DNA of 64,000 nt from a virus. Its lineage: Duplodnaviria > Caudoviricetes. How positions within the stretch are numbered: position 1 is the stretch's first letter; each line of letters starts with the position of its first letter. The notes below the pieces were generated by a model. That model did not search any database and was not told where the DNA came from. It saw only the letters and a list, made by a program, of their open reading frames with translations. Of the stretch, positions 7,302 to 60,735 are shown one piece after another. The position numbers were made by a program, and so were the translations under genes. The stretch lies in the IMG/VR virus record IMGVR_UViG_3300031555_010338. One strand, 5' to 3'.

Positions 7302-8456
7302 TTACACTTTCGCATTTCTTACATCCTGAAACAAATTATTGTATATCTTGTTCATTCTTCTCAATACCATAGTGCTATTGCCTCTTTTCATATGTCCACA
7401 CCAACTTTGATAAGCCGTGTTCACATCTTCATATGTAAATCGCCCACTATCCACCCATTTCCTAAATTTTATCAACTTGCGTTTCATTCTTGTCGGAGAG
7501 CTTCTGTTCATCTTTCTAATAACCTTACCGCTATCCGTCAATGTAAACTTTGTTTTTAGGAATTTGAATCCAGTTCTCAATGGTACTATACGGGTTTTCT
7601 TCTTATTGAGATTTAAGCCAAGTTCTCTGCATTTATTTTCAATCTCTGACATACAATATCGCAAATAATCTGGGTCTTGATGAATTAAGTACAGATCGTC
7701 CATGTAACGTCCATAATACTTGATTCTAAGTTTCTCTTTTATAAAGTGGTCAAGTGGACTTGCCACCATTAACGCATCAATTTGAGAAACCTGACTACCA
7801 AGACCAAATCCAGTGTCGCCAAAATCCTCCATAAAACCATTGGCTAACTTTCTGATACGAGCGTCTTTTATTCTGCGCTCTCCCTCATAATAAATTACGC
7901 TATGCGGAGAGCTGTTGAAGAAGTCAGAAAAATCAGCAAGTAAGACAGCTCCAGAATTAACGCCTTTAGTTCCGTACTTATGGTAATAACGATGCAAATG
8001 TGCATCTACACGATCCATCGCAAAGTCTATTCCTTTGCCTTTCAGACTTGCAGCATTATCATAAATGAAAGAATTTGAAAACACTTCTACTAAAATATAA
8101 TCACATAAACATCGTTGCACAACACGTTCTGATATATGCACACTCTTAATATGTCGTAACTTTCCACGCTCAATGAGATCGAATTCGTGAAATCCCTTTG
8201 TACGAAACTTATCAGTCATCAATTTATCGTGCGTATCTGCAATATTGGCATTCAAACGACTCATATAGTTCTGTACACTATTTTTCCATGACACCCCTTT
8301 GGCGCAATTCTTTGCAGAATTATACAAATGCTCAAAAGAAAACACACTTTCAAAATCCCCACATTTTGAACTTAGTGCGTCTCGTTTTGCTTGTCGTGCC
8401 AATCTTCTTCTGTGGTATCGTGCTTCCTTGCGTTCTTCGCTTGTCGTCACTATCAC
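7302..8456 (-). CDS. DGR reverse transcriptase
   Basis: GLGSQVSQ, YYGRYMDD and GFKFL motifs; adjacent to TR and Avd. Confidence 0.95.
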   Translation of the reverse strand: MIVTTSEERKEARYHRRRLARQAKRDALSSKCGDFESVFSFEHLYNSAKNCAKGVSWKNSVQNYMSRLNANIADTHDKLMTDKFRTKGFHEFDLIERGKLRHIKSVHISERVVQRCLCDYILVEVFSNSFIYDNAASLKGKGIDFAMDRVDAHLHRYYHKYGTKGVNSGAVLLADFSDFFNSSPHSVIYYEGERRIKDARIRKLANGFMEDFGDTGFGLGSQVSQIDALMVASPLDHFIKEKLRIKYYGRYMDDLYLIHQDPDYLRYCMSEIENKCRELGLNLNKKKTRIVPLRTGFKFLKTKFTLTDSGKVIRKMNRSSPTRMKRKLIKFRKWVDSGRFTYEDVNTAYQSWCGHMKRGNSTMVLRRMNKIYNNLFQDVRNAKV

Positions 8457-8691
8457 TCTTTTCTTTGAATATAAAATGGTGTGCCGTACAGTAAAATTAT
8501 AGAGCGTGTGTTCTAACTGCTTAAACCTGCCACCATGAAATCGGTTATCACGCCATCACCGACCATGCAAGCAGCGTCCGGTGTAGATTATCGGCACACA
8601 GTTTTGGGCTTTATAAAGCCACGGGAACAAACCTCCCTTCAGCGGAAGTACGAATTTCGCCTTATAGGTTACTTTGATTGACTATATCCCG

Positions 8692-8823
8692 CAGAATCCG
8701 AAGGACACGCCATTACTGTTGTTGGCGTTGTTATTGTTGGCGTTGCCGTTGCTGTTAACATTACAGAAATTCGTGGAGTTGCTGGAATTAGGAGAACGCT
8801 CCCACCAGTTATTGGCTGAACCA
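8692..8823 (-). repeat. DGR template repeat (TR)
   Basis: 132 nt with 16 AAY codons in target frame; differs from VR1 and VR2 only at sense-strand adenines. Confidence 0.95.
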
Positions 8824-8887
8824 CGCAACGCAGCCCCAAGACACAACGAAACAGGAACGAGGTTTGACCCAAGAAAAAGCCAAATGC

Positions 8888-9355
8888 TTATTCTGTTACA
8901 TGACTGATTTCATCCTCTTCATCAGAAAATCTGCTAAATCTTCTTCTATCGGCTTTCTTTACTCCAACGATCAATGTCTTTTCCTTTTGGATCAGCCTTC
9001 CCCATTCAAGCATTGCATTTGAAAGCCATTTGAATTCTATACTCCAATTTGGATTTTTCTTTACAATGTCATACATAAGTTGCAATTTATCATCCAAACT
9101 GTTAAGTAGACCAAACGCCGTGTTCAAAAGGTCACGGCGAGTTTGAAACTCGTGTTCATTTGTTGGCAAAATAGCTTCTGCCAAGCGCACATGCGTATCA
9201 ATATCTTCTGCAAGAGATGCAATTTTATTTACAACCAGATATGTGTATCGTTTTGGAAACTTCACACAGTTGCTGATTGTATAAATCTGTAATTGTCTCG
9301 CAGTTTCTACATATTGAACCGCACTTGTACCACGTTTTGATTTATAAACTGACAT
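8888..9355 (-). CDS. avd: DGR accessory variability determinant (Avd-like four-helix bundle)
   Basis: 155 aa, basic, FPKRYTY motif; located between target gene and TR. Confidence 0.8.
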   Translation of the reverse strand: MSVYKSKRGTSAVQYVETARQLQIYTISNCVKFPKRYTYLVVNKIASLAEDIDTHVRLAEAILPTNEHEFQTRRDLLNTAFGLLNSLDDKLQLMYDIVKKNPNWSIEFKWLSNAMLEWGRLIQKEKTLIVGVKKADRRRFSRFSDEEDEISHVTE

Positions 9356-9478
9356 ATTTTCTTCTCACATACTGTATGGACATACACATCTCCCCTGAAC
9401 GGGGAGCGTGTGTAGTCCCAACAAAAACACCCGCCAGCTCAAAAAGCTTAACGGGTTGTCACTCATTCGGTTATTAGG

Positions 9479-11104
9479 TTAAACACAGAAGCCGAAGGAC
9501 ACGCCATAACTGATGTCGGCGCTGTAATAGTCGGCGGAGCCGCCGCTGCTAACACAACAGAAATACGTGGAGATGCTGGAACAAGGAGAACGCTCCCACC
9601 AGGGACTGGCTGAACCAGAACCATTAGAAAGATACTTGACTCTTTTTGCAGACGTGGTAGCATAGCTGCTGTAATAATCGTACTGCTTGCCTTCACCAGC
9701 AACAGAATAAGTTGTTGAACCAAAAATCTCTACCTCAGACAGCAAGAAACAATAATCGTTCGTTGTTTCAAGTGCCGTACCAGTATTGCCGACACTCGTA
9801 ACCTTCTGTACGGGGCGAATCACAGCCTTTACATCATCTGGGAGTGTGTCATAAATCGCACCTCCTGGCTGCAGTCTTGTACGCATTGCACAGCTTGCCC
9901 ATCCGCCAACATTGGTGCTGGACGAATTCATGGTGTTGGTTGATGCCATACTATTCTTCATACAGAATGTAATTCCGGCATAGCCAGTACCATCAGCAAG
10001 TACATCGTGAGTAAATCCGATGATCTGCAATGTCACCGTCTCTCCTGTTGTCAGCTCTACATCCTTTTCGTCTCCAAGCGTATAATACATTTCAGGGCTA
10101 CCGCTCTGAGCCAACGCACTGATCGTCTCCCAGGAATCCTCTGCAAGAATATGTTTATCGCTCAAATCTGCTGTTTTTGTGTACATAAACGGTGTAACAT
10201 CAAAAGAAACCTCCGCGATAATCGCATCTTCATAATCTGTAAACTGCCCCTTCCATGTACCAGTGGTTGGGAGTGCATATGTAATAGTCTGTCCTGCCTT
10301 GGTATAAGAGCCAGTCAACACATTACTGCCACAAGTCAAAGTAAGTGTATATGGAGTAATACCTGCGGGATATGGAGCAGGCAACTTCACGGACACATAT
10401 GCAACGGCCTTTGTTCCATCACCAACACAATCAACATAAGCATTTGTTGGATACAAAATCAACCCATTATAAACCCAATATGTAGAAGAATATCGGATAT
10501 TATTTACATAATTCTGTCCTTCAGAGCATGTCTCGCTCCAATCGGTCAGTTTCCATGTATCCTCAGATTTAACATATGTACATGACACCCATCCAATAGC
10601 GGTAAATTCGCTGGACGCAGTATCATATGTCTGGATGGCGAAATCAGATGTCATAAACATAACAGACACATGGTTTGAACTTTCCAAAATTGCCATGTGA
10701 TCGTAATCACCTGTGTACATGGTCTTTGCGTGTTCAACATAAGACTCATATACTTCTGGCAAGGACGCTGTTGGTGCAATTTCAAGTGTACCAGTCACAC
10801 CGTAGATTGTAACTCCTTCAGCGATATTCTGGGGTGCAAGGTTTTTATCTCCCGCAACAATGACTCGGCTAAAACCATCATATCCATCATCTGGATACTG
10901 AATAAATGATTTACCAGTAGGCTCAATCTCTCCAAGCTGAAGCAATACATCCTCTCCAGTTCCAGTAGGAATATCACGAATCAAGTCAGCATATTCGCGG
11001 AATGTTGCATCGTCTGGCAATTCCACACCCTTGCTCACGATTGCATTACCGATCTGGGTCTTTGTCTCCAGCAAATAATTCAATTTTGTTCCAATATCGC
11101 TCAT
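9479..11104 (-). CDS. DGR target 1: tail fibre/adhesin with C-terminal DUF6273-like (C-type lectin-fold) domain
   Basis: Ends WWERSP...GVSFGFCV containing VR1; at the end of the tail gene cluster. Confidence 0.85.
   Translation of the reverse strand: MSDIGTKLNYLLETKTQIGNAIVSKGVELPDDATFREYADLIRDIPTGTGEDVLLQLGEIEPTGKSFIQYPDDGYDGFSRVIVAGDKNLAPQNIAEGVTIYGVTGTLEIAPTASLPEVYESYVEHAKTMYTGDYDHMAILESSNHVSVMFMTSDFAIQTYDTASSEFTAIGWVSCTYVKSEDTWKLTDWSETCSEGQNYVNNIRYSSTYWVYNGLILYPTNAYVDCVGDGTKAVAYVSVKLPAPYPAGITPYTLTLTCGSNVLTGSYTKAGQTITYALPTTGTWKGQFTDYEDAIIAEVSFDVTPFMYTKTADLSDKHILAEDSWETISALAQSGSPEMYYTLGDEKDVELTTGETVTLQIIGFTHDVLADGTGYAGITFCMKNSMASTNTMNSSSTNVGGWASCAMRTRLQPGGAIYDTLPDDVKAVIRPVQKVTSVGNTGTALETTNDYCFLLSEVEIFGSTTYSVAGEGKQYDYYSSYATTSAKRVKYLSNGSGSASPWWERSPCSSISTYFCCVSSGGSADYYSADISYGVSFGFCV
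9486..9617 (-). repeat. DGR variable repeat VR1
   Basis: Ungapped 132-nt match to TR with 22 mismatches, all at TR adenines. Confidence 0.95.
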
Positions 11105-43094: not shown

Positions 43095-43170
43095 TGGTGC
43101 GCCTGAAGGGAGTTGAACCCCCGACCATCGGCTTAAAAGGCCGCTACTCTACCAACTGAGTTACAGGCGC
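43095..43170 (-). tRNA. tRNA-Lys(UUU)
   Basis: Cloverleaf, loop CU-UUU-AA, encoded CCA. Confidence 0.92.
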
Positions 43171-43233
43171 ATACTTCCGGTTTGCACGGTTTCCCCCACT
43201 TATTTAACGTCCATTGGTGACTCTCTTTAGACA

Positions 43234-43302
43234 CAAGACATGACATATTTGACCAAAAATATGATTTGAAATGGTGGTTCAAGAAATTGCTGTACATGCC
43301 TT
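43234..43302 (-). ncRNA. ACAGCAA stem motif, copy A
   Basis: aaggcat-gt-ACAGCAA...atgtctt-g. Confidence 0.6.
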
Positions 43303-43305
43303 TAT

Positions 43306-43382
43306 TGGTGGATCGGGAAGGTAACGATCCTTCATCCTACGGTTTTTCAGACCGTCGCTCAGACCTCATAAGCTACCGATCC
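43306..43382 (-). tRNA. tRNA-Phe(GAA)
   Basis: acggt-CU-GAA-AA-accgt; atypical T loop AUCGUUA; CCA. Confidence 0.85.
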
Positions 43383-43421
43383 ATATAAACCCAGAGCGCC
43401 GTAGCGCATCTGAGTATGATC

Positions 43422-43514
43422 TGGCGGCGGAAGTAGGACTCGAACCCACAAGCCGCTCATCACGGCCAACAGTTTTCAAGACTGCTCCCCGCACCTACTG
43501 GGGTCAATTCCGCC
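43422..43514 (-). tRNA. tRNA-Ser(UGA)
   Basis: gcagt-CU-UGA-AA-actgt, long variable arm, G73, CCA. Confidence 0.88.
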
Positions 43515-43519
43515 ATATA

Positions 43520-43637
43520 TGGTGGGTGAGGGTGGATTTGAACACACCGAACGGTTGTCAACCGATCTCTTTTACGAAGTAGGGCGACACTCCTACTCTG
43601 CCGGCGAGACTCCTTTGACCTCTTGGTTACTACACCC
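43520..43637 (-). tRNA. Aberrant Tyr-like tRNA with 36-nt anticodon loop (intron-containing or tRNA-like RNA)
   Basis: Acceptor, D, variable and T arms and ACCA recognisable; anticodon loop holds an extra hairpin and ends UCGUAAAA. Confidence 0.55.
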
Positions 43638-43642
43638 ATATT

Positions 43643-43729
43643 TGGTAGGGGAGGTGGGAGTCGAACCCACTCAGCCCGAAAGCAACGGTTTTACAGACCG
43701 CCCCAGCTCTCCGACTCTGGCGCTCCCCT
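43643..43729 (-). tRNA. tRNA-Tyr(GUA)
   Basis: gcggt-CU-GUA-AA-accgt, variable arm, CCA. Confidence 0.88.
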
Positions 43730-43891
43730 ATATCAAGTGCGGCTTCATGACATTTCAGAGGCGCAAAGCCGCAACGCTTTCTCTCCTACTGCCAGCTATT
43801 TCTCCCATAGCCAGGGCGCACTATCCTTGCGAATAGCTAAATACGCCGAACATCCTATTGGAGCGCTTTCACCTTGCGGGACTTCTATTGC

Positions 43892-44737
43892 TTAATTGCC
43901 GGTAGAATTTGAACCATTAACCGTGGCGTATGCTTTTACTGTATTTTTCAGCAATGCAACTCTGGTCATCAGGCCAACGCCGCCAGGAACCGGAGTAATC
44001 GCACTACACTTCTCGCTTACCGATGCAAAATCAACATCACCGCAAAGCTTACTATCTTCGCCTCTATTGATTCCAACATCCACAACAACCGCGCCATCCT
44101 TTACCATATCAGCCATAAGGAAACCAGGCTTCCCAACTGCACAAACGATAATATCTGCGTTTCGTGTGTAAGTAGAAATGTCTTTTGTTTTTGAATGACA
44201 TGTCGTTACAGTGCCACCCATACTGGTCAGCAATGCAGACATAGGTTTTCCAACAACATCACTTCTGCCGATCACAACACAATTCTTTCCCTCGACTTTA
44301 ATATCAAAGGCTTCCAGCAGATCAACAATACCAGAAGGTGTACACGGCATAAACGTCGGCCTACCAAGAACCAGCTTGCCAACACTCTCAGCCCTAAAGC
44401 AGTCCACATCTTTTTCTGGGTGGATATGCTCAATTACTGCGTTCTTGTCGATATGCTGCGGAAGAGGAAGCTGCACCAAAATACCGTCAACATCGTTTCG
44501 ATGATTTAGCGTCTGTACAGCGACAATTAAATCGCTTTGAGCTACTGTATCGTCAAAACGATATACACGGCAATCAATACCGCATTCCTCGCAATCCTTC
44601 TCCTTACCTCTGACATAAGCCTGAGAAGCAGGATTGTTACCTACCATGATTACGGCAAGCTTTGGTGGTCTTGCGAAGTTAGATATCGTTCTTCTTATTT
44701 TTTCTTTTTCTCTTGCGGCAACTTCCTTGCCGCTCAT
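43892..44737 (-). CDS. folD: Bifunctional methylenetetrahydrofolate dehydrogenase/cyclohydrolase
   Basis: YVRGK, GILVQLPLP, KDVD, PCTP, VIGRS.VVGKP, DVGIN, ITPVPGGVG. Confidence 0.95.
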   Translation of the reverse strand: MSGKEVAAREKEKIRRTISNFARPPKLAVIMVGNNPASQAYVRGKEKDCEECGIDCRVYRFDDTVAQSDLIVAVQTLNHRNDVDGILVQLPLPQHIDKNAVIEHIHPEKDVDCFRAESVGKLVLGRPTFMPCTPSGIVDLLEAFDIKVEGKNCVVIGRSDVVGKPMSALLTSMGGTVTTCHSKTKDISTYTRNADIIVCAVGKPGFLMADMVKDGAVVVDVGINRGEDSKLCGDVDFASVSEKCSAITPVPGGVGLMTRVALLKNTVKAYATVNGSNSTGN

Positions 44738-44775
44738 CAGAATGTAACTAATAGAAATCAGTCCTTACATGAATT

Positions 44776-44867
44776 TGGTGCCGGCAGTAGGACTCGAACC
44801 CACAACCTGCCGCTTATCTGGCGCAACGGGGTATAATTCCGCTGCTCTACCATTGAGCTATGCCGGC
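44776..44867 (-). tRNA. tRNA-Ile(UAU) with long variable arm
   Basis: Loop AU-UAU-AC; extra arm with loop CA-GAU-AA; A73, CCA. Confidence 0.75.
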
Positions 44868-44874
44868 ATACAGT

Positions 44875-44949
44875 TGGTGCGGGTGGAGGGAATTGAACCC
44901 ACGACCTTGTGATTAAGAGTCACCTGCTCTACCGCTGAGCTACACCCGC
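44875..44949 (-). tRNA. tRNA-Lys(CUU)
   Basis: Loop CU-CUU-AA, CCA. Confidence 0.92.
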
Positions 44950-44968
44950 AAACATGGATGAAAGAAGA

Positions 44969-45074
44969 CAAGACACATAAGAAAGGGAGGTGAATGAAAG
45001 AAAGGAGCTGCTTATGGAGAAAGCACATTGTAAAAAACATAGTTTTGATTTTGTTATTTTGCTGTGTGTGTCTT
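44969..45074 (-). ncRNA. ACAGCAA stem motif, copy B
   Basis: aagacac-ac-ACAGCAA...gtgtctt-g. Confidence 0.6.
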
Positions 45075-45081
45075 TGTTGTT

Positions 45082-45156
45082 TGGCAGGAGCTGAAGGACT
45101 CGAACCCTCACGAACAGTTTTGGAGACTGTCATGCTACCGATTACATCAAGCTCCT
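45082..45156 (-). tRNA. tRNA-Trp(CCA)
   Basis: acagt-CU-CCA-AA-actgt. Confidence 0.92.
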
Positions 45157-45157
45157 A

Positions 45158-45235
45158 TGGGGTGGATGACGGAACTCGAATCCGCGACCTTTGGAGCCAC
45201 AATCCAACGCTCTAAGCCATCTGAGCTACATCCAC
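45158..45235 (-). tRNA. tRNA-His(GUG)
   Basis: ttgga-UU-GUG-GC-tccaa, C73; no encoded G-1. Confidence 0.9.
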
Positions 45236-45236
45236 A

Positions 45237-45313
45237 TGGCGACGCATACGGGACTTGAACCCGTGACCTCCGGCGTGACAGGCCGGCGTTCTACTCTTCT
45301 GAACTAATGCGCC
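45237..45313 (-). tRNA. tRNA-Asp(GUC)
   Basis: ccggc-CU-GUC-AC-gccgg. Confidence 0.92.
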
Positions 45314-45317
45314 ATAT

Positions 45318-45394
45318 TGGTGATGCGTATGGGGCTTGAACCCATAAATTCCAGCGTGAAAGGCTGGTGACTCTACCAATTCGTCCAACGCACC
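45318..45394 (-). tRNA. tRNA-Glu(UUC)
   Basis: ccagc-CU-UUC-AC-gctgg. Confidence 0.92.
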
Positions 45395-45398
45395 ATAT

Positions 45399-45485
45399 TG
45401 GTACTGCTAATGGGACTTGAACCCATACGAGATTTCTCCCACCAGCCCCTCAAGCTGGCGTGTCTGCCTATTCCACCATAGCAGC
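45399..45485 (-). tRNA. tRNA-Leu(GAG)
   Basis: ccagc-UU-GAG-GG-gctgg, variable arm. Confidence 0.9.
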
Positions 45486-45490
45486 ATATT

Positions 45491-45745
45491 TTATTCATTC
45501 CAATCAATTAGGGGATATAGATCGTAGGGTGAATTACCAGTTACCAACTTCTCATATCCTCCATCCACAATGCGCCAAAGCGTATGCTTTTTCTTTTCTG
45601 GATTTTGACTGATCTGATATTGCTTACCAGACTTTGTTTTACACAACACACCAGTACCGCATTCAGAAGCTGGAAGTTTCTTGACAACCTTTGATGTCTT
45701 TTCTTTTACAACATTTGCTGCCTTTCTCGGCATATATTCACCCAC
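45491..45745 (-). CDS. Small basic hypothetical protein within tRNA array
   Basis: 84-aa ORF filling a gap between tRNAs. Confidence 0.6.
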   Translation of the reverse strand: MGEYMPRKAANVVKEKTSKVVKKLPASECGTGVLCKTKSGKQYQISQNPEKKKHTLWRIVDGGYEKLVTGNSPYDLYPLIDWNE

Positions 45746-45861
45746 TTATATATAATGGCAAGGCGCTTCCAGTTGGAAGCCTTATTACGGCAAGCGGGTC
45801 ATGAATCCGCAATTTCTGCTATAACAACTTGTGCGCACAAGCCCCTTCGCAGATCCACCTC

Positions 45862-45938
45862 TGGTACTCCCAACGGGACTCGAACCCGTATTACCGGCTT
45901 GAGAGGCCAGCCTCCTATTCCAGTTAGAGGATGGGAGC
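45862..45938 (-). tRNA. tRNA-Glu(CUC)
   Basis: ctggc-CU-CUC-AA-gccgg. Confidence 0.9.
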
Positions 45939-45949
45939 ATATAAACAAA

Positions 45950-46040
45950 TGGCTGGGGTAGCAGGACTCGAACCTGCGGACGAGGGTAAACCTCTTGTCG
46001 GAGTCAAAGTCCGATGCCTTACCAACTTGGCGATACCCCA
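45950..46040 (-). tRNA. tRNA-Gln(UUG) with non-canonical long variable arm
   Basis: tcgga-CU-UUG-AC-tccga, U1-A72, G73; extra gagg-tttac-cctc hairpin. Confidence 0.85.
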
Positions 46041-46047
46041 ATATAAA

Positions 46048-46124
46048 TGGTACGCCAGAGAGGACTCGAACCCCCAACCGTAGGATTAGAAATCCCATGC
46101 TCTGTCCAGTTGAGCTACTGGCGC
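46048..46124 (-). tRNA. tRNA-Arg(UCU)
   Basis: tggga-UU-UCU-AA-tccta. Confidence 0.92.
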
Positions 46125-46127
46125 ATA

Positions 46128-46201
46128 TGGAGATACCGATAGGATTTGAACCTATGATCCTGGGGTTGCAACCCAGAGCCTTCCCACTTGGCTACGGTAT
46201 C
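46128..46201 (-). tRNA. tRNA-Cys(GCA)
   Basis: ctggg-UU-GCA-AC-cccag, U73. Confidence 0.92.
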
Positions 46202-46205
46202 ATAT

Positions 46206-46282
46206 TGGTACGCCTGGGAAGACTCGAACTCCCGACACATCGGTTCGTAGCCGATTGCTCTATTCCACTGAGCTACAGGCGC
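46206..46282 (-). tRNA. tRNA-Arg(ACG)
   Basis: atcgg-CU-ACG-AA-ccgat. Confidence 0.92.
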
Positions 46283-46399
46283 ATAAAAGAAGGAGCCTAA
46301 ACAGCGCCAACAATGCCTTACACATCGGCTGTCGCCATCCAATAGGAAGTCTCAGGGTTACTGGTTTGCTCCTTGGCCTACTAAAAACCCTTGTTCGGT

Positions 46400-46487
46400 T
46401 GGTGCTGGCGGTGGGACTTGAACCCACACGGTATTGCTACCAACGGATTTTGAGTCCGCCGCGTCTGCCGATTCCGACCACGCCAGC
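46400..46487 (-). tRNA. tRNA-Leu(CAA)
   Basis: gcgga-CU-CAA-AA-tccgt, variable arm. Confidence 0.9.
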
Positions 46488-46494
46488 ATAAAAA

Positions 46495-46562
46495 CAGAGC
46501 GCCTTGTTTTGGTTGTATCAGTTAAAAGTTGATTCCAGAAAGAAAGTTGCTGTAAGCGCTCT
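46495..46562 (-). ncRNA. ACAGCAA stem motif, copy C
   Basis: agagcgc-tt-ACAGCAA...gcgctct-g. Confidence 0.6.
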
Positions 46563-46566
46563 TGAA

Positions 46567-46653
46567 TGGTACAGGAGACAGGACTTGAACCTGCACGACC
46601 TTGCGGCCAATAGACTCTGAATCTACCGCGTCTGCCAATTCCGCCACACCTGC
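46567..46653 (-). tRNA. tRNA-Leu(CAG)
   Basis: gtaga-UU-CAG-AG-tctat, variable arm. Confidence 0.9.
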
Positions 46654-46659
46654 ATATTG

Positions 46660-46735
46660 TGGAGTAGATGACGAGACTTGAACTCGCAACAGCCAGCTTG
46701 GAAGGCTGGAACTCTACCAGTTGAGCTACATCTAC
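46660..46735 (-). tRNA. tRNA-Gly(UCC)
   Basis: ccagc-CU-UCC-AA-gctgg, U73. Confidence 0.92.
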
Positions 46736-46738
46736 AAA

Positions 46739-46814
46739 TGGTACACGATGACGGGATCGAACCGCCGACATCATCCTTGTAAGGGACGCGCTCTCCCTGC
46801 TGAGCTAATCGTGC
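46739..46814 (-). tRNA. tRNA-Val(UAC)
   Basis: cgtcc-CU-UAC-AA-ggatg. Confidence 0.92.
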
Positions 46815-46977
46815 GTATTGGCCTACTCACACCGCAGGCCGTGGTGTCGGCTCGTACTTCGCCCACCGATTTGCGTCGGTTTTACTCCCAAAACCTTGTA
46901 AAAGTCATCACTGCCAGATGTGAAGGTTTCCATTTCCCATTCAGTTTACAGTCTCCGCTCTGTTTGTGGGACGGGCA

Positions 46978-47052
46978 TGGTTGCGGGGGTGGGACTCGAA
47001 CCCACGATTCCCAGCTTATGAGGCTGGTGAGATGCCGCTTCTCTACCCCGCA
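46978..47052 (-). tRNA. tRNA-Met(CAU), initiator-like acceptor stem
   Basis: ccagc-CU-CAU-AA-gctgg; acceptor tgcgggg/ccccgca; lacks the three G-C anticodon-stem pairs of fMet. Confidence 0.85.
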
Positions 47053-47175
47053 ATATATACCGTGGATAGACCACGGGCATACGGCGTTGCGCCTAATGTG
47101 TTTGATGACAGTTCTAAAATCAGCACCAGTGCAGGCACTGGCCTCTTCTAAACTCCCTGTCATGTTTTGTTCTGC

Positions 47176-47251
47176 TGGCTGGCATGGTGGGACTCGAACC
47201 CACGACATACGGATTAACAGTCCGCCGTTCTACCAACTGGACTACACGCCA
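47176..47251 (-). tRNA. tRNA-Asn(GUU)
   Basis: gcgga-CU-GUU-AA-tccgt. Confidence 0.92.
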
Positions 47252-47259
47252 ATATCTAA

Positions 47260-47371
47260 CGAGACGCATCAATTCCATTTTGTGAAAACACCTCGGCGTT
47301 TACCGCCGAAACTTGATAAATTCAAACTTACCTTTTTTCTTCATCATATAGAAAGTTGCTGTTCGCGTCTC
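47260..47371 (-). ncRNA. ACAGCAA stem motif, copy D
   Basis: gagacgc-ga-ACAGCAA...gcgtctc-g. Confidence 0.6.
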
Positions 47372-47381
47372 TATGTATGTT

Positions 47382-47438
47382 CAAGGCACATCATCTTCTT
47401 TTACCGCAAAAAGTATGTAGTGTTGCTGTTCGTGCCTT
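47382..47438 (-). ncRNA. ACAGCAA stem motif, copy E
   Basis: aaggcac-ga-ACAGCAA...gtgcctt-g. Confidence 0.6.
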
Positions 47439-47463
47439 TGTTATTTTGCGCGGAATTTCCGCG

Positions 47464-47539
47464 TGGTCTGAGTGGTGGGGATCAAACCCACGGCCTCGTG
47501 ATCCCAAATCACGCGCTCTATCATCTGAGCTACACCCAG
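47464..47539 (-). tRNA. tRNA-Pro(UGG)
   Basis: cgtga-UU-UGG-GA-tcacg. Confidence 0.9.
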
Positions 47540-47544
47540 ATATT

Positions 47545-47965
47545 TGGTGGAGTAGGCGGGAATCGAACCCGCGTCCGAAATTCCTACATGTACAAAACAT
47601 TCTTACGCAATAGTCGATAGTTTCTGCATTTACCGAATGGAAGGCTGCTTAGATGATCGACACAACAAATGCCCAGGGCGCACCGGTTTAGTGGCCTCCA
47701 CCACCTTGTTTCTTTTCACAGTGACAAGGAAAACTGCAATGCTGGCTGAATCATTATCCTCAGACGCTCACCCAACCAGAGGTGCGTCGTTTTGGTATCC
47801 GAACTGCTGTTAAGCAGCAACCCTCTCTGCCACACAAGCGGCCAGTGCAGGATGGATCATAACGAAAACTTCAGTGTTGTCATTTCATTTTTGTTTGAGC
47901 CGTAAGGAGGACTCATACCTGCGTGTTTTGCACTCTCAAAACCCCGTCGAACCCATTACTACCCC
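47545..47965 (-). ncRNA. ssrA: tmRNA
   Basis: 5' GGGGUAGUAAUGGGUUCGAC; 3' UUCGGACGCGGGUUCGAUUCCCGCCUACUCCACCA; G3-U70 pair; tag ORF ending VAA*. Confidence 0.92.
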
Positions 47966-47979
47966 ATATTAAATTGTAG

Positions 47980-48055
47980 TGGTCGAGACGAATGGGATTG
48001 AACCATTGACCTTTCGATTATCAATCGAATGCTCTACCAACTGAGCTACGCCTCG
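47980..48055 (-). tRNA. tRNA-Ile(GAU)
   Basis: ttcga-UU-GAU-AA-tcgaa. Confidence 0.92.
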
Positions 48056-48172
48056 ATATTAGGCCATGCGTCCGAAAAACCTCGTCTGCAGCCGATAGGT
48101 TTTTAGCTGAGATAGCAGTAAAAGTAATGAGCTGAACCGCACAAACGCTAACATAACCAACATGGCACATTC

Positions 48173-48248
48173 TGGTGGAACTGATGGGGGTCGAACCCAC
48201 GACCTCCTGCTTGCAAGGCAGGCGCTCTCCCAACTGAGCTACAGCCCC
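48173..48248 (-). tRNA. tRNA-Ala(UGC)
   Basis: cctgc-CU-UGC-AA-gcagg, G3-U70. Confidence 0.93.
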
Positions 48249-48293: not shown

Positions 48294-49097
48294 TTAGCAA
48301 CAGAAGCCGAAGGACACGCCACAACTGGTGCCGGCGCCGTTAAGGTTGGCGTCGCCGCCGCTGGAAACAGAACAGAAACTCGCGGAGATGCTGGAAAGAG
48401 GAGAACGCAGAAAATTCCATCGTCGATCTCCAAAATCGTCTTCCTTGTAGTATGGGACATCTTCCTGTTTATAGAACTCATACCACTTACCCTCTCCAGG
48501 GACAGAGTAAAAACATCTACCGTATAATTCCTTCTCGCTTTTCAACCACAGTTTACAGACACTCTTGACGATTTCCTTGCTACAGTTACCAGCGCTGGTC
48601 AACTTAATAACAGGCTTAATAATCGCCTGAATATCATCAGAACACAAATTGATAATCTCATCGTTTAACCTACGATTCATATCACAGGCATCCCAACCAC
48701 CACGATTCGTGCAGTCTTGATTCATCCGCATGTCTTCTTTGTAAATATTCACCATATCCCAAGAAATGGGAGCCTTACCGGAGCCATCAGCAAGATCGTC
48801 GTGGTCAAAACCAATAATCTGCCATACAGCAACGAAGCCGTTCTTCATGTAGTCCTTCTTCTGAGCGCCAAGAGCAAATGTCTCTCGCGCCTTACCAGAA
48901 CGACCAACATCATCAATTTTATCCCACGAAAGATGGTTGAGATCCTTCATTGGAAGCGCCATAGGCGCAACAAACCCAATGTCCAGCGGCTCATGCTTCA
49001 TCTCCGAACCAAAGTCGAATGTCACGACACCATTGTTACACGAGATATTCAAAGAGCCAAACCTTCCGATATCTTTCTCACTGATACTGACCTGCAT
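48294..49097 (-). CDS. DGR target 2: stand-alone DUF6273-like (C-type lectin-fold) protein
   Basis: Paralog of target 1 C-terminal domain (QIIGF.HD.LADG.G; N.GGW..C.M; LRSP...GVSFGFC). Confidence 0.85.
   Translation of the reverse strand: MQVSISEKDIGRFGSLNISCNNGVVTFDFGSEMKHEPLDIGFVAPMALPMKDLNHLSWDKIDDVGRSGKARETFALGAQKKDYMKNGFVAVWQIIGFDHDDLADGSGKAPISWDMVNIYKEDMRMNQDCTNRGGWDACDMNRRLNDEIINLCSDDIQAIIKPVIKLTSAGNCSKEIVKSVCKLWLKSEKELYGRCFYSVPGEGKWYEFYKQEDVPYYKEDDFGDRRWNFLRSPLSSISASFCSVSSGGDANLNGAGTSCGVSFGFCC
48301..48408 (-). repeat. DGR variable repeat VR2 (remote)
   Basis: Ungapped 108-nt match to TR 8692-8799 with 22 mismatches, all at TR adenines. Confidence 0.95.
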
Positions 49098-49130: not shown

Positions 49131-49766
49131 CCTTGAAAAATTCAATATCTCAATCACACTCATCATTCGGCCTTCGCCGTACCTCCATTACCTTCTTCCA
49201 ATCTTCTGCCACCAGGGAGACAAGTCTGAGCTTCGGGGAGCGACCCCTAACTTCTTGCCCCAGTCCCCGCCCTAAAAGAGCCGAACCACGAGTCCTGTGC
49301 GGGATTGTTTACCCGCAAATTTCACCGTTCGTTCAGAAATTGTTACTTTTACAATAACGCACCCAATTTGCATTATAGAAAGATCATCTTCTTCTCCGTC
49401 CTACGGCTACTTTAACCGGCGACTTTCGTTATAGCCGAATTTCTTCGACATCAAGACGGAAACGCATTGCTGGCTTTACCTCCGTCATTATGGCTGCCAC
49501 ACCATAACCCCATAGGCTTATTCTTCCACCGGAAGCGTCTATTGCTGCGCCCGAAAGTTCCGTGCATTTTGTAGCGATAACTCTTAGCACCACACATTTT
49601 TGTTGGCGGTTTCCGCCTCCCCACAATACATCGCTGCATCGCAGCCGCCCAGCAATAAAAGGTATCCCTCGTAAGCCAAACGGAAATTACTGCGTGTCTC
49701 TGAGTGCTGACGCACTTTGTTCACAGAGTTAATAATAAGCATGATTCAGATATTGAATTTTCAAGG
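49131..49766 (-). ncRNA. Large structured ncRNA, ROOL-like
   Basis: ~630 nt without a credible ORF, closed by a 25-bp terminal inverted repeat, many internal hairpins, inside a phage tRNA operon; family assignment from recalled similarity, not a search. Confidence 0.7.
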
Positions 49767-49771
49767 TTCTT

Positions 49772-49847
49772 TGGAGCTGGTGACAGGAATCGAACCCGCA
49801 ACCCACTGATTACAAATCAGTTGCGCTACCTGTTGCGCTACACCAGC
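49772..49847 (-). tRNA. tRNA-Thr(UGU)
   Basis: actga-UU-UGU-AA-tcagt. Confidence 0.92.
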
Positions 49848-49880: not shown

Positions 49881-49909
49881 ACTATACCAGACAGAAACCG
49901 ATTTGTCAA
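49881..49909 (-). promoter_or_regulatory. SigmaA promoter for the RNA island
   Basis: TTGACA-17 nt-TATAGT with extended -10 TG and AT-rich upstream element. Confidence 0.8.
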
Positions 49910-52257: not shown

Positions 52258-55035
52258 TTAATTCTTATGACTTTGGTAATATCTGGCGTTTCGCTTAGCT
52301 CTTTTCTCCTTATCCCGCACATCTTGACAAGCGTCGCAGCGCTTCTTGTTCTTCACAATTCCATCGACCTCGAAATCCTTTCCGCAATCAATACAGCGAA
52401 TGGTCTTTTTGACAATAGGATGATAGACGGCGCAATTATTACAAAGCTTCTGCTGCGCAGTCATCGGAACAAAGCGCTCTCCGCATTTCTTACACTGGAT
52501 AGATCCATCTGGCAGATTATTCCGAAGGTTGGTCAAAACCATATCGCCAAAACACATCCAGAAAACATTTTTCCGTTTACTCTGTTTGGTGTGGAAAAGA
52601 TACTTTACGAGAACATCACATACATCCTTCATGTCGTACCCAAGAGCGGCGAATCGCTCCAAAATCATATCTCGCACATATGCAAGGTTTGTCATATCGT
52701 CATAGAAGCTGATTGCGTAACGATACTGTTTTTCGATTTCGTTATATAAGTCAACAACGTCCTGTAACATACTCACCTTCAAGGAAGGATTATTGAGCAT
52801 GTACTGATATCGAAAAACACCAATGTTCCTTGCAGAAAAGGACATACGCTTGTTTGGAACGATTGCTTCCAGACGGTTTACTGCACTGTAATTCAACCGC
52901 TGTACTCTGCCGCCATCCTTTTTCTTCGCATATACAAAGAAATGTGGGGCTTTCATGCTGGTAATTCTCGCCAGTCTTGCGTTTACATCGTCCGGACGAG
53001 TTGGCTTAAACAAAGTCTTCGCATAGTCAATACAGAAGTTGTTCTCCATACACAAGATCTTAATAGCGTCGATATCTACATCGTCGCTGTTCCAGATTTT
53101 CGTGATGTCGTTGCTGATAACACCGATATTGCCTCCAGTCCAGGCCGCACGAAGACCTTTGAATATCTCTTCATTTGTTATGGTGACAGCGCCGGCCTTT
53201 GCCATCTCATAATACAGAGGGACAATGCCTTCCATGTTTCGCTCCGCGATTTCTACCAAAAGACGATCCGCGCATACAAGGCTCTTATCTCCATCGCAGT
53301 CAAACTGCAAAATCTTTGAAATAAGATCATGACAACTCGTATAAATAGCGTTTGGAGTAAACCACTTTCTTGTCATTGGTGTAACGACATTACGCCGTAC
53401 TGCATGTTCTCTATACAAATGTGGCGAACGCAAACAATCCAGCTTCTCAATATTGCGATAAAGATAGCAAGATACCTCGCCATCAGCCAGCAAACCCTTT
53501 GGATCTCGATTACCAAGGAAAAGCCACTCGCAAAATGCGTACAAATCAGGAATTAAGAACATATACTTCGCAGACAAATCCAGCTTTGCTGCCTTTGCCT
53601 CTTGCACCAGGTTCTTTTTTATCTGTCGAAGCATTTCCTTTGTGTACGGATCAGAAAGAAGCTCTGGATAAATCTGCAAACACTCCTGAAAGGCATTTTT
53701 GTTTTTGAACTGAGAAGAAGCACCGAAAACATCAAGCATGGTTTCACGATCAGACGCGATCCTAACAATCTTGTCAACGGACTTCTCAGCAAGTGACTGC
53801 AGCTCTTCTTCCGTAATATCTGTCAGTGTCTGAAGCATCTGATAATTCAGCTTTGCGTCAGGAAGAAAGTCTTCTTCCTCATTGCACTTGCCAGCCGTGC
53901 ATCCATTTTCAAGATACATCGCAATATACTCATTCCAACTTTCGTAGTATTTGTACATCTTGAACTGGCTTTTAGTAAAAATTACCTCAATGCCCTCAGC
54001 AATGATATCATGCTCTTTCCCGTAAATATCCTTTACAACGCCATGGCTTACACTCGGATCGTTCTGATCTGCCTCTCTTATAAATCGGTCAAACGGGAAT
54101 ACCGCAAGAAGACCTTTTACCCAAGGCAAACGAACCATTGTGTTTTTGGGACAGCAGGTAGGTAGCACCATGCCGCACCCATCTGTATGTGTGATTGGGA
54201 TATCCATTTGCTTTCGCTCTGTCTGATATGTTCGGTGGTCAATAAAATCCACTGTGCCAGCAACCAATGTTTCCATATCATCGACTACGATAGACTTTTG
54301 AATATCAAAACCATCCCAAGGATCTGTTGCACTATTGCAAAGAGCAAGGTAAGCAAGATATTTATTGATGTTAATACCTCCGCGCTCATTGATGCTATCA
54401 ACTGTCAGGCCACACATCAGAGTTTTTTGATACTTCTCCCAAACCTTCTCTTTGATGAACACTGTTTTCTTTGTTCGGATCTGGCCGGCAGAAGCAGTAA
54501 AGCAAATATAACGCTCTCCGTTGTAGGTATATCCATTCAGAATCATATCTTCAATGACATCGAAGTAATATGTACGAATAACCATGAAATCGTCATACAG
54601 CTTGCCGGTTTGCATACCAAGGGTTCTTGTCAACATCGACTCAAACACAGAGATGATGTTCTTATCGATTACATACTCGCTTCTCAACTCTCTCGTCTCC
54701 CTATGTTTCTGCAACAGAGAAACAAGCTCATCCTTATACAGCTTCATCGCTGTATTTTTGCCCTTCAGCTCTTTGTTGATCTGGCGAATACGATCCTTGT
54801 CGCCTATTTCTACCTGCTCATCACGGCGAATCTTATACAGCGCACGATACTGAGACTGAGCCTTTTCGAGTGAAAGTCCGCCGTAGTGATAGCTTGATAG
54901 TATTTCCCGCTCTGCCTTCAACTTGTTCTTTTCGTTGCAGAGCTTGTTTATTTCAATCTCCAGCTTGCGCTCTTCGTCCGTATAAAACGCACTGGTATCA
55001 AAGCTGTAGATATGGATTTGCTTATCGAGACTTAT
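52258..55035 (-). CDS. YonO-like single-subunit RNA polymerase (RdRP-like fold) with C-terminal zinc fingers
   Basis: TDGCG, RLPWVKG, RSPH, QFDCDGD catalytic motif; frame stays open to ATA 55035 behind AAGGAGG. Confidence 0.88.
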   Translation of the reverse strand: MSLDKQIHIYSFDTSAFYTDEERKLEIEINKLCNEKNKLKAEREILSSYHYGGLSLEKAQSQYRALYKIRRDEQVEIGDKDRIRQINKELKGKNTAMKLYKDELVSLLQKHRETRELRSEYVIDKNIISVFESMLTRTLGMQTGKLYDDFMVIRTYYFDVIEDMILNGYTYNGERYICFTASAGQIRTKKTVFIKEKVWEKYQKTLMCGLTVDSINERGGININKYLAYLALCNSATDPWDGFDIQKSIVVDDMETLVAGTVDFIDHRTYQTERKQMDIPITHTDGCGMVLPTCCPKNTMVRLPWVKGLLAVFPFDRFIREADQNDPSVSHGVVKDIYGKEHDIIAEGIEVIFTKSQFKMYKYYESWNEYIAMYLENGCTAGKCNEEEDFLPDAKLNYQMLQTLTDITEEELQSLAEKSVDKIVRIASDRETMLDVFGASSQFKNKNAFQECLQIYPELLSDPYTKEMLRQIKKNLVQEAKAAKLDLSAKYMFLIPDLYAFCEWLFLGNRDPKGLLADGEVSCYLYRNIEKLDCLRSPHLYREHAVRRNVVTPMTRKWFTPNAIYTSCHDLISKILQFDCDGDKSLVCADRLLVEIAERNMEGIVPLYYEMAKAGAVTITNEEIFKGLRAAWTGGNIGVISNDITKIWNSDDVDIDAIKILCMENNFCIDYAKTLFKPTRPDDVNARLARITSMKAPHFFVYAKKKDGGRVQRLNYSAVNRLEAIVPNKRMSFSARNIGVFRYQYMLNNPSLKVSMLQDVVDLYNEIEKQYRYAISFYDDMTNLAYVRDMILERFAALGYDMKDVCDVLVKYLFHTKQSKRKNVFWMCFGDMVLTNLRNNLPDGSIQCKKCGERFVPMTAQQKLCNNCAVYHPIVKKTIRCIDCGKDFEVDGIVKNKKRCDACQDVRDKEKRAKRNARYYQSHKN

Positions 55036-59242: not shown

Positions 59243-60735
59243 CAGAACCCTCCATTCTCAGCATGGAGACGGTTTCTGATTTCGCTCAGCGTGTATTCCT
59301 TAGTAATCGCACCATCACGGAACACAGTCTCCAGCATGTTTTCTCCGCTCACTGTTGCGGGTGTCAGCCCGTCTTCATATACGATCTGTCCGTCTGTATC
59401 GTGGTACACTCTACAAACCCCGCGCTGGCTCTTCTTGAATCTTCCAGTATCGGTCTTAGGATTTTTGAAAATCTCAAATCCCTTGCCGTTGACCTCTCCA
59501 TATGTCGCCTTAACCGCAATGCCAAACGTATCTCTGGTAAAGGGGTTAAGGATCGTTTCGTCCTTATCGTTGACTGTCTCGACGCACTGCATGGAAAAGC
59601 TGCCAACACCAAGAGAGACATTGTTGCAGGCAAATCCAGCCTCAATCAGTCTGCGGTAGATTTCAGCACAGCGATTTACGGTAATAGAATCACCGTACAA
59701 AGCCTTCACATGGGGGTCGAGAACCTTGTATCCCTTACTGTTTACGGTTCCTCCGAAAATGTCCCACAGATGAAATACAGTCTCAGTCACGATTTCAACA
59801 GGATCGCCGCTATCGCCGCGAACCAGAAGACATCCGTTATGGTTCATGATTTCATCCTTGAGCTGAGGAAGAATCTCATCAACCAAGTGCCAGTAGTCGT
59901 AGCTATCGGACACCATAGAGAAGTTGTGATTGGGATAAATCTCAGTCAGAAGTCGGCGCACGAAGGAGATCTCATCACCGTCGATGGCGTAGTTACTGCA
60001 CATCACGCTATGCTCCGTAGAGATTGCGCCGTATGCAACCGGCTCCTTAGTACAGTCGCAGTTATACATCTTTTCAAGGTACGGAATTGCGGGGACAGTT
60101 GCCGTATTGAGGAAAGACAGACAAAAACCAGCGCTGCTCTTAACGGCTGACTGCAAGCTCTCCTGACCACGGAAGGAGAAATCGCCCAGCGCACGACTGC
60201 GAGGAATATTGTCATCCACGGAAATGTCGTATGCACGATTGACGATCTCACGATACCAATAGCCAACATTGGCGGAAATCATCGGATGCCACAGCTCAGC
60301 GGACATCAAAGACTCAATGGTGTTCACCAGCCACGCAAAATCGGGGTGTGTATTGCTGATCTCGATCATAGGAACCTTGATAGGAACACGGGTTCCCTCA
60401 GGAATCGCCTTAATCTCCAAGGGCAGATACCCAAGCTTGTGCAGATCGACAATCTTACCAAGGTCATAAGTACCAACGCCAAGCGTACTGTCGAGAACTC
60501 TCTGATACTCAGCAGCGACCTCTTCACGACTACGGTTGAAGAAATACTTGTTGAAGTAGTCCACAAGATATGTCTTCAAAAACGCCTGCAAGCTGAACAT
60601 GACAAGCTTATCCTGACCGCCAATTCTGCTCATACGAGGTGTCAGATAAGACACCAGCTTTGTCAGGCCACTCGGATACTGCTCGTGGTGAGTAGTCTTG
60701 TAAAAATCCAGCAAAAGCAAAGGATTAGTTTCCAT
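59242..60735 (-). CDS. NAMPT-family phosphoribosyltransferase (Namat-like)
   Basis: DFYK..H, DFSFRG, TEHS, VSDSYD, RGDSG, YGDSI, GVGS, K.PKTD, KKS..G. Confidence 0.9.
   Translation of the reverse strand: METNPLLLLDFYKTTHHEQYPSGLTKLVSYLTPRMSRIGGQDKLVMFSLQAFLKTYLVDYFNKYFFNRSREEVAAEYQRVLDSTLGVGTYDLGKIVDLHKLGYLPLEIKAIPEGTRVPIKVPMIEISNTHPDFAWLVNTIESLMSAELWHPMISANVGYWYREIVNRAYDISVDDNIPRSRALGDFSFRGQESLQSAVKSSAGFCLSFLNTATVPAIPYLEKMYNCDCTKEPVAYGAISTEHSVMCSNYAIDGDEISFVRRLLTEIYPNHNFSMVSDSYDYWHLVDEILPQLKDEIMNHNGCLLVRGDSGDPVEIVTETVFHLWDIFGGTVNSKGYKVLDPHVKALYGDSITVNRCAEIYRRLIEAGFACNNVSLGVGSFSMQCVETVNDKDETILNPFTRDTFGIAVKATYGEVNGKGFEIFKNPKTDTGRFKKSQRGVCRVYHDTDGQIVYEDGLTPATVSGENMLETVFRDGAITKEYTLSEIRNRLHAENGGF

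Follow-up and report, generated by a model that had tools for sequence, protein, structure and literature searches.

Among bacterial RNAs without a known function, ROOL and GOLLD rank with the largest; the cages that they form were solved in 2025, and their production in the cell is not understood. The locus described here, a 636-base segment among the tRNA genes of a phage, raises this question in a concrete form: which RNA does it encode, and how would such an RNA be transcribed, folded and released from its precursor? ROOL is a described family of phages and prophages, often found near tRNA islands, that reaches the level of 16S rRNA in one strain, where it is non-essential, and builds RNA-only cages, octameric or hexameric, of unknown function (PMC5737381, Weinberg et al. 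2017; PMC12286853; PMC12990946). Members from env-120, E. faecalis and L. salivarius have been studied by cryo-EM (PMC12286853, PMC12990946), and in the solved structure the linker is disordered and faces the interior of the cage (PMC12286853). A discrete, stable transcript has been shown for the L. salivarius ROOL, with mature ends mapped by circular RACE (520 nt) and a promoter that reporter assays place 225-450 nt upstream (PMC5643018), so that this RNA must be excised from a longer precursor. The family itself is thus already known; what is new here is a boxA-like element in the outer 5' strand of the helix that closes the RNA. Since the RNA belongs to a known family, its expression signals become open to study on a molecule of solved structure.

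A full-length ROOL RNA in an SPbeta-like provirus

The window, that is, the whole stretch of 64,000 nt that was analyzed, lies within a provirus whose IMG/VR record has 143,788 bases, a completeness rating of 100% and a single ROOL copy. The start of the provirus contig corresponds to window positions 430-64000; bases 1-429 of the window fall outside the contig, yet include no N. The large terminase is 39% identical to those of SPbeta-like Bacillus phages, and we read the phage as an SPbeta-like temperate phage of a gut Bacillota host. A terminase search recovered 77 related viral loci. Of 48 related records, 35 carry ROOL, never in more than one copy, and fragments account for many of the rest.

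Scanning the window with cmscan gave a single ROOL match (RF03087), with 384 bits for a gathering cut-off of 99.1 (E = 2e-88), that spans model positions 1-574 of 574 and is not truncated. The preliminary description had called the segment a ROOL-like giant RNA with a hairpin-rich interior and had named a covariance-model match as the test of the label; the score bears the label out, and the interior is the full-length match itself. Membership of 49131-49766 (minus strand, 636 bases) in the ROOL family is as good as certain. The parts of the RNA are as follows.

49149-49752, minus strand: ROOL RNA core by the Rfam model ends
49339-49404, minus strand: variable internal linker of ROOL (model alignment and relatives), holding GAUCUUU at 49379-49385

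Within the model ends, the RNA measures 604 nt, compared with a family norm of about 580 nt with multistem junctions and a pseudoknot. Its model alignment contains few non-standard pairs, and the bracketed pseudoknot strands are complementary. The folding energy of a 648-nt stretch had a z-score of -6.4, and none of 20 shuffles folded as well. In the alignment of relatives (A2), the linker columns (about 415-490) diverge with indels, whereas the flanking columns are nearly invariant. In all of this (a length of about 600 nt, a full-length model match, conserved loops and pseudoknot strands, a variable linker, and a place in a prophage tRNA array, with the same orientation as the tRNAs) the window RNA behaves like the rest of the family. 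Cages are known only for other members, and from family membership this one would be expected to assemble likewise. GOLLD (RF02032) is also a large, ornate RNA found near tRNAs in phages and prophages, and it forms cages too, but with another fold and another stoichiometry, and its model had no match in the window; nor did OLE or any other non-ROOL, non-tRNA family match between 49000 and 49900 up to E = 1 (cmscan). Short ORFs (62-81 aa) that overlap ROOL were rejected as genes because of the ROOL model match and the covariation.

The minus strand carries, in this order, HU, tRNA-Met, a promoter-like site, tRNA-Thr, 5 nt, and ROOL with its stem (49766-49131), followed by 33 nt with a ribosome-binding site, a DUF6273 gene, tRNA-Ala, tRNA-Ile, a tmRNA, 22 tRNAs and the terminase. 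Altogether, 27 tRNAs and one tmRNA surround ROOL on the same strand.

49881-49909, minus strand: sigma-70-type promoter-like site, TTGACA-17 nt-TATAGT with TG before the -10 (11/12 matches)
49772-49847, minus strand: tRNA-Thr (UGU) with encoded CCA, first gene of the unit (ARAGORN; Rfam tRNA, 69.3 bits), ending 5 nt before the stem
43095-48248, minus strand: downstream array of tRNA-Ala, tRNA-Ile, tmRNA and 22 further tRNAs (tRNA and Rfam searches)
47545-47965, minus strand: phage tmRNA inside the tRNA array, downstream of ROOL (97.8 bits)
43892-44737, minus strand: folD-like gene within the array (protein-domain search)

Both promoter hexamers are kept in 25 of 26 distinct relatives while the sequence of the spacer varies and, therefore, the site looks like a real promoter. 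The order promoter-like site, tRNA-Thr, ROOL would make ROOL the second gene of an operon, in agreement with the preliminary description. Further upstream (52258-54921, minus strand), there is a gene for an 887-aa protein that matches a eukaryotic-type RdRP family, like the single-subunit RNA polymerase YonO of SPbeta. The phage carries this YonO-like polymerase of its own, yet the ROOL unit has a host-type promoter-like site.

A long helix closes the RNA

The two duplex arms that had been quoted for the ends of the segment were both recovered, at 49766-49742 (5' arm) and 49156-49131 (3' arm) of the minus strand, and they form 24 standard pairs with one G-G mismatch and one bulged U. Another 11 pairs continue inward, so that 35 of 36 positions pair between 49766-49731 and 49167-49131 (minus strand).

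49731-49766, minus strand: 5' strand of the extended P1, leader-like (pairing, covariation, fold)
49131-49167, minus strand: 3' strand of the extended P1, trailer-like (pairing, covariation)

The Rfam model covers only the inner 16 of these pairs as P1, and about 19 lie beyond the model ends. The helix appears in the minimum-energy and centroid folds of the 648-nt stretch alike. Among 19 distinct relatives, 90.2% of the helix cells are paired, a value that falls to 37-48% once the 3' strand is shifted by 1-3 columns, and compensatory changes on both sides were found at 11 of the 36 pairs; the observed values were reached by none of 500 shuffles. The closing stem is a real helix under selection, and we see very little room for doubt here. 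Neither is it a peculiarity of this phage, since folding of 5' versus 3' flanks showed that many ROOL lineages have closing helices of 28-35 pairs that extend far past the Rfam ends.

A boxA-like element in the 5' strand

In the leaders of rrn operons, boxA is the site for NusB-S10, and RNase III cleaves the 16S leader-trailer helix (PMC13753749, PMC10250234, PMC3177189). In E. coli, active 30S subunits cannot be made without this helix, with a contribution from boxA (PMC10250234). In B. subtilis, boxA is found upstream of both the 16S and the 23S genes, and NusB binding has been shown by NMR (PMC13753749); the rrn consensus is AUGAUCUUUGAAA in this species and UGCUCUUUAACA in E. coli (PMC13753749, 2026). 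Our literature search found no paper with both boxA and ROOL, and none tying ROOL to RNase III. The published description of the family does not include a boxA-like sequence either, whereas the extra outer part of P1 in the window carries one.

49756-49771, minus strand: boxA-like element, outermost 5' strand of the closing helix (likeness to 16S leaders and to B. subtilis boxA)

Its 11-mer occurs exactly once in the 64-kb window, and GAACCTTGAAAA or close variants begin the 5' side of many ROOL closing helices, as they do here. A copy with one mismatch, of the type found before 23S genes, is located at 60071-60081 (minus strand) inside a NAD-salvage gene cluster, probably by chance. Compared with the B. 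subtilis boxA consensus, which may not be that of the host, the window agrees at 10 of 13 positions; in sister phages of the L094 group the agreement is complete (13 of 13), starting from the last A of the tRNA's CCA.

For a closer comparison, rrn operons were fetched from Clostridia genomes. They were drawn from other genomes of the same class because the 16S gene was absent from the ROOL-bearing metagenome-assembled genomes tested. The Clostridia 16S leaders carry the motif, with a second copy in the spacer before the 23S gene, and we call it boxA by its position and its likeness to the B. subtilis element. When leaders were folded against trailers, the motif was located in the 5' strand of a long 16S leader-trailer helix, the same layout as in ROOL. 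The window arm shares 14 contiguous identical bases (17/19 overall) with the 16S leader of one Clostridia genome (L249). The preliminary description had spoken of an rRNA-style processing stem, and this label turns out to be better founded than it could know, as the stem has sequence in common with real 16S leader-trailer helices; cleavage itself would follow by analogy.

The parallel with an rrn leader extends to the motif, the strand and the place in a 5' strand that encloses a large structured RNA, and probably also to the transcription unit, which appears to lie behind a host-type promoter and to have tRNAs in the transcript. There are differences as well. The enclosed RNA is ROOL and not rRNA, and the loop is about 560 nt long instead of about 1500; a tRNA precedes boxA in place of a leader hairpin, and the window unit has one boxA. 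NusB-S10 binding and helix cleavage belong to the rrn operons and would, by analogy, be predicted for the window RNA.

Conservation within the phage clade is clearly asymmetric. Pairwise identity is 0.80 for the 5' motif, 0.59 for its 3' pairing partner and 0.48-0.54 for the flanks, and in several relatives the partner strand has drifted out of register and no longer pairs with the motif. There is almost no compensatory change in the outer pairs and much of it in the next eleven. That the 5' motif is conserved beyond a partner that is sometimes unpaired indicates a constraint on the sequence of the 5' strand, and not only on pairing.

Recurrence across ROOL lineages

From viral contigs and bacterial genomes we assembled a set of 24 ROOL lineages, with model ends taken exactly from the covariance model, and scored the 5' base of P1 with a matrix built from 13 rrn sites. 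Nine of the 24 lineages scored above the 99th percentile of the background, where about 0.24 would be expected, the lineage clustering, the matrix and the background being our own and all small. The 3' side, used as a control, gave 0/24 above the same percentile. The remaining 15 lineages fell below the line, three or four of them with near-threshold variants, and one of these variants (L221) is an E. coli-like boxA. We tried to infer the host of L221, in order to see if the type of boxA follows the type of host, and the search returned only tRNA matches. In the L. salivarius ROOL (RefSeq record of pMP118), there is neither a boxA nor a long stem; together with the 15 lineages below the line, this means that boxA and the long stem are not needed for ROOL as such.

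Relatives were collected by conserved motifs. A first motif proved too narrow for the scan of viral contigs (4 loci), and a second one gave 59 viral and 33 genomic loci; among the records then searched, 45 of 47 viral and 11 of 19 genomic ones proved to contain ROOL. By blastn, the region gave tRNA-Thr alone in cultured phages and nothing in plasmids, so that relatives of this ROOL are beyond the reach of sequence similarity alone.

These data could also be accommodated by an ordinary ROOL with a long P1, in which the stem protects the ends from exonucleases or projects from the cage and Nus factors play no role. The boxA-like sequence would then be a passive remnant of rrn flanks that were once captured, or a convergence of A/U-rich stems. 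Closing helices of 28-35 pairs in many lineages without the motif agree with this explanation, as do the great abundance of the L. salivarius RNA, which lacks it, and the folding and assembly of ROOL in vitro without proteins (PMC12286853). However, a passive sequence fits poorly with a motif confined to one position and one strand in 9/24 lineages (0/24 on the control side), with a 5' strand conserved above its partner, and with outer pairs that show few compensatory changes next to pairs that show many. We regard this alternative as possible but rather unlikely.

Upstream of ROOL, just before P1, six unrelated lineages (L206, L207, L216, L224, L231 and L237) have a conserved segment of ca. 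35 nt at a distance of 20-60 nt. ARAGORN does not recognize a tRNA in it, and it may represent the 3' terminus of another small RNA.

The DGR target gene next to ROOL

The gene that follows ROOL is a target of a diversity-generating retroelement (DGR), of which the window contains a complete cassette.

48294-49097, minus strand: gene for a 267-aa DUF6273 protein (Pfam), starting 33 nt after the stem with a ribosome-binding site
48301-48432, minus strand: DGR variable region 2, the 3'-terminal part of the 267-aa gene and the third copy of a 132-nt repeat
7302-11104, minus strand: complete DGR cassette (target 1, accessory ORF, template, RT-2 RNA and the ORF in the reverse-transcriptase position)
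9486-9617, minus strand: variable region of DGR target 1 (541 aa), in the cassette
8692-8823, minus strand: DGR template repeat, the adenine-rich reference copy, between the accessory gene and the reverse transcriptase
8459-8686, minus strand: RT-2 RNA (156 bits), preceding the reverse transcriptase

The accessory ORF has 155 aa, and the one in the reverse-transcriptase position has 384 aa. Every mismatch read against the template falls at a template adenine. Variable region 2 adjoins ROOL at 39 kb from the cassette, and target 2 shares 41% identity with target 1 over the latter's C-terminal 218 residues. The earlier claim that ROOL lies directly upstream of a hypervariable gene is therefore right, the ORF at 49097-48294 ending in a variable copy of the DGR template. 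This arrangement is not part of the ROOL family as described. The ORF is syntenic in most close relatives (57-65% protein identity) and absent in L099 and in the more distant L109-L112, in which a tRNA comes directly after ROOL. Hence, the adjacency is a feature of a subclade and provides no evidence of joint function.

The preliminary description had raised the binding of ROOL to the DGR target, a claim that found no support, as sister phages have a tRNA at that position. A broader version, in which ROOL and the target protein act together, for instance by the variable protein binding or riding the cage, would have in its favor the adjacency and the probable cotranscription in the window subclade. 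But the adjacency is limited to this subclade, L099 and L109-L112 being without the ORF; other ROOL lineages are flanked by tRNAs or unrelated genes, and the sequences give no hint of contact. We consider joint action highly improbable. A general functional link between ROOL and DGR targets was likewise rejected, given the sister clades without the gene.

There is another way in which the neighbor could matter. The stem might act chiefly as an RNase III site by which the amount of DGR-target mRNA is set, like the sites between genes of phage T7, and the cut would leave that mRNA with a fixed 5' terminus 33 nt ahead of its start codon. On the minus strand, no promoter-like site was found between ROOL and the ORF and no terminator after the stem, so that the ORF probably relies on read-through, and in most close relatives it does lie directly behind ROOL. 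Nevertheless, stem and motif are kept in the sister phages that have a tRNA and no ORF after ROOL, and they are also found in unrelated ROOL lineages with other neighbors, which makes this function improbable as the main one.

A possible rRNA-like mode of production

Sequence identity, position, recurrence and asymmetric conservation point to a common reading, in which the 5' strand would be a functional boxA and the unit would be made like rRNA, with transcription by a Nus-modified host polymerase, chaperoned closure of P1 and endonucleolytic release. We lean towards this explanation, if only with somewhat better than even confidence. Host RNA polymerase would start at the conserved promoter and make tRNA-Thr. 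The boxA-like element would then emerge single-stranded and could recruit NusB-S10 and other Nus factors, converting the polymerase into a fast, termination-resistant complex that would carry transcription through ROOL and through a further, largely untranslated stretch of roughly 6 kb with the tRNA and tmRNA genes. Some 600 nt later, the trailer strand would close the 35-bp leader-trailer helix, isolating the folding of ROOL from its flanks. As a long, near-perfect duplex, the helix might be a substrate of RNase III or of a comparable enzyme; tRNA-Thr would be freed by RNase P together with the enzymes acting on tRNA 3' ends. Once released, ROOL would assemble with copies of itself into a hollow cage, as the solved members do. 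Nus binding, antitermination, cleavage, cage assembly and copy number are all things that we infer for this locus. The element would be of obvious use beyond ROOL, since an untranslated array of about 6 kb needs protection from Rho. It counts against this reading that boxA is buried in the duplex after the helix forms, so that any Nus binding must be transient; the same applies to the 16S leaders of Clostridia.

Should at least a third of ROOL genes have the boxA of host rRNA in a leader-trailer-like helix, a concrete hypothesis would follow for the biogenesis of these RNAs: transcription that depends on Nus factors, a chaperoned P1 closure and an RNase III cut that sets the RNA free. It would also suggest that the Rfam model of ROOL ends too early on both sides, and that the natural mature RNA may not be identical to the constructs of structural work. 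The presence of boxA also hints at an interaction of ROOL with the machinery of ribosome synthesis.

The linker

Inside the otherwise fast-diverging linker, the heptamer GAUCUUU (49379-49385, minus strand) exactly reproduces the B. subtilis boxA consensus in its core. It is kept in the window, L083, L099 and L111 and appears as variants in L094, L105 and L112; most other lineages do not have it. One could imagine that ROOL is a mimic of an rRNA precursor, acting as a decoy for the ribosome-biogenesis machinery of the host (NusB-S10, other Nus factors and RNase III), with the linker heptamer allowing the cage to hold or titrate NusB-S10. This is a speculative idea that we think unlikely. If true, it would link the function of ROOL to the way in which rRNA synthesis or ribosome assembly of the host is controlled in the course of an infection.

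The linker is also the site of an insertion in another ROOL lineage (L233 and L238; IMG/VR G103 and G114), where it contains a tRNA-like insert that ARAGORN recognizes as a tRNA, with its identity undetermined. This insert resembles the tRNAs reported inside GOLLD linkers.
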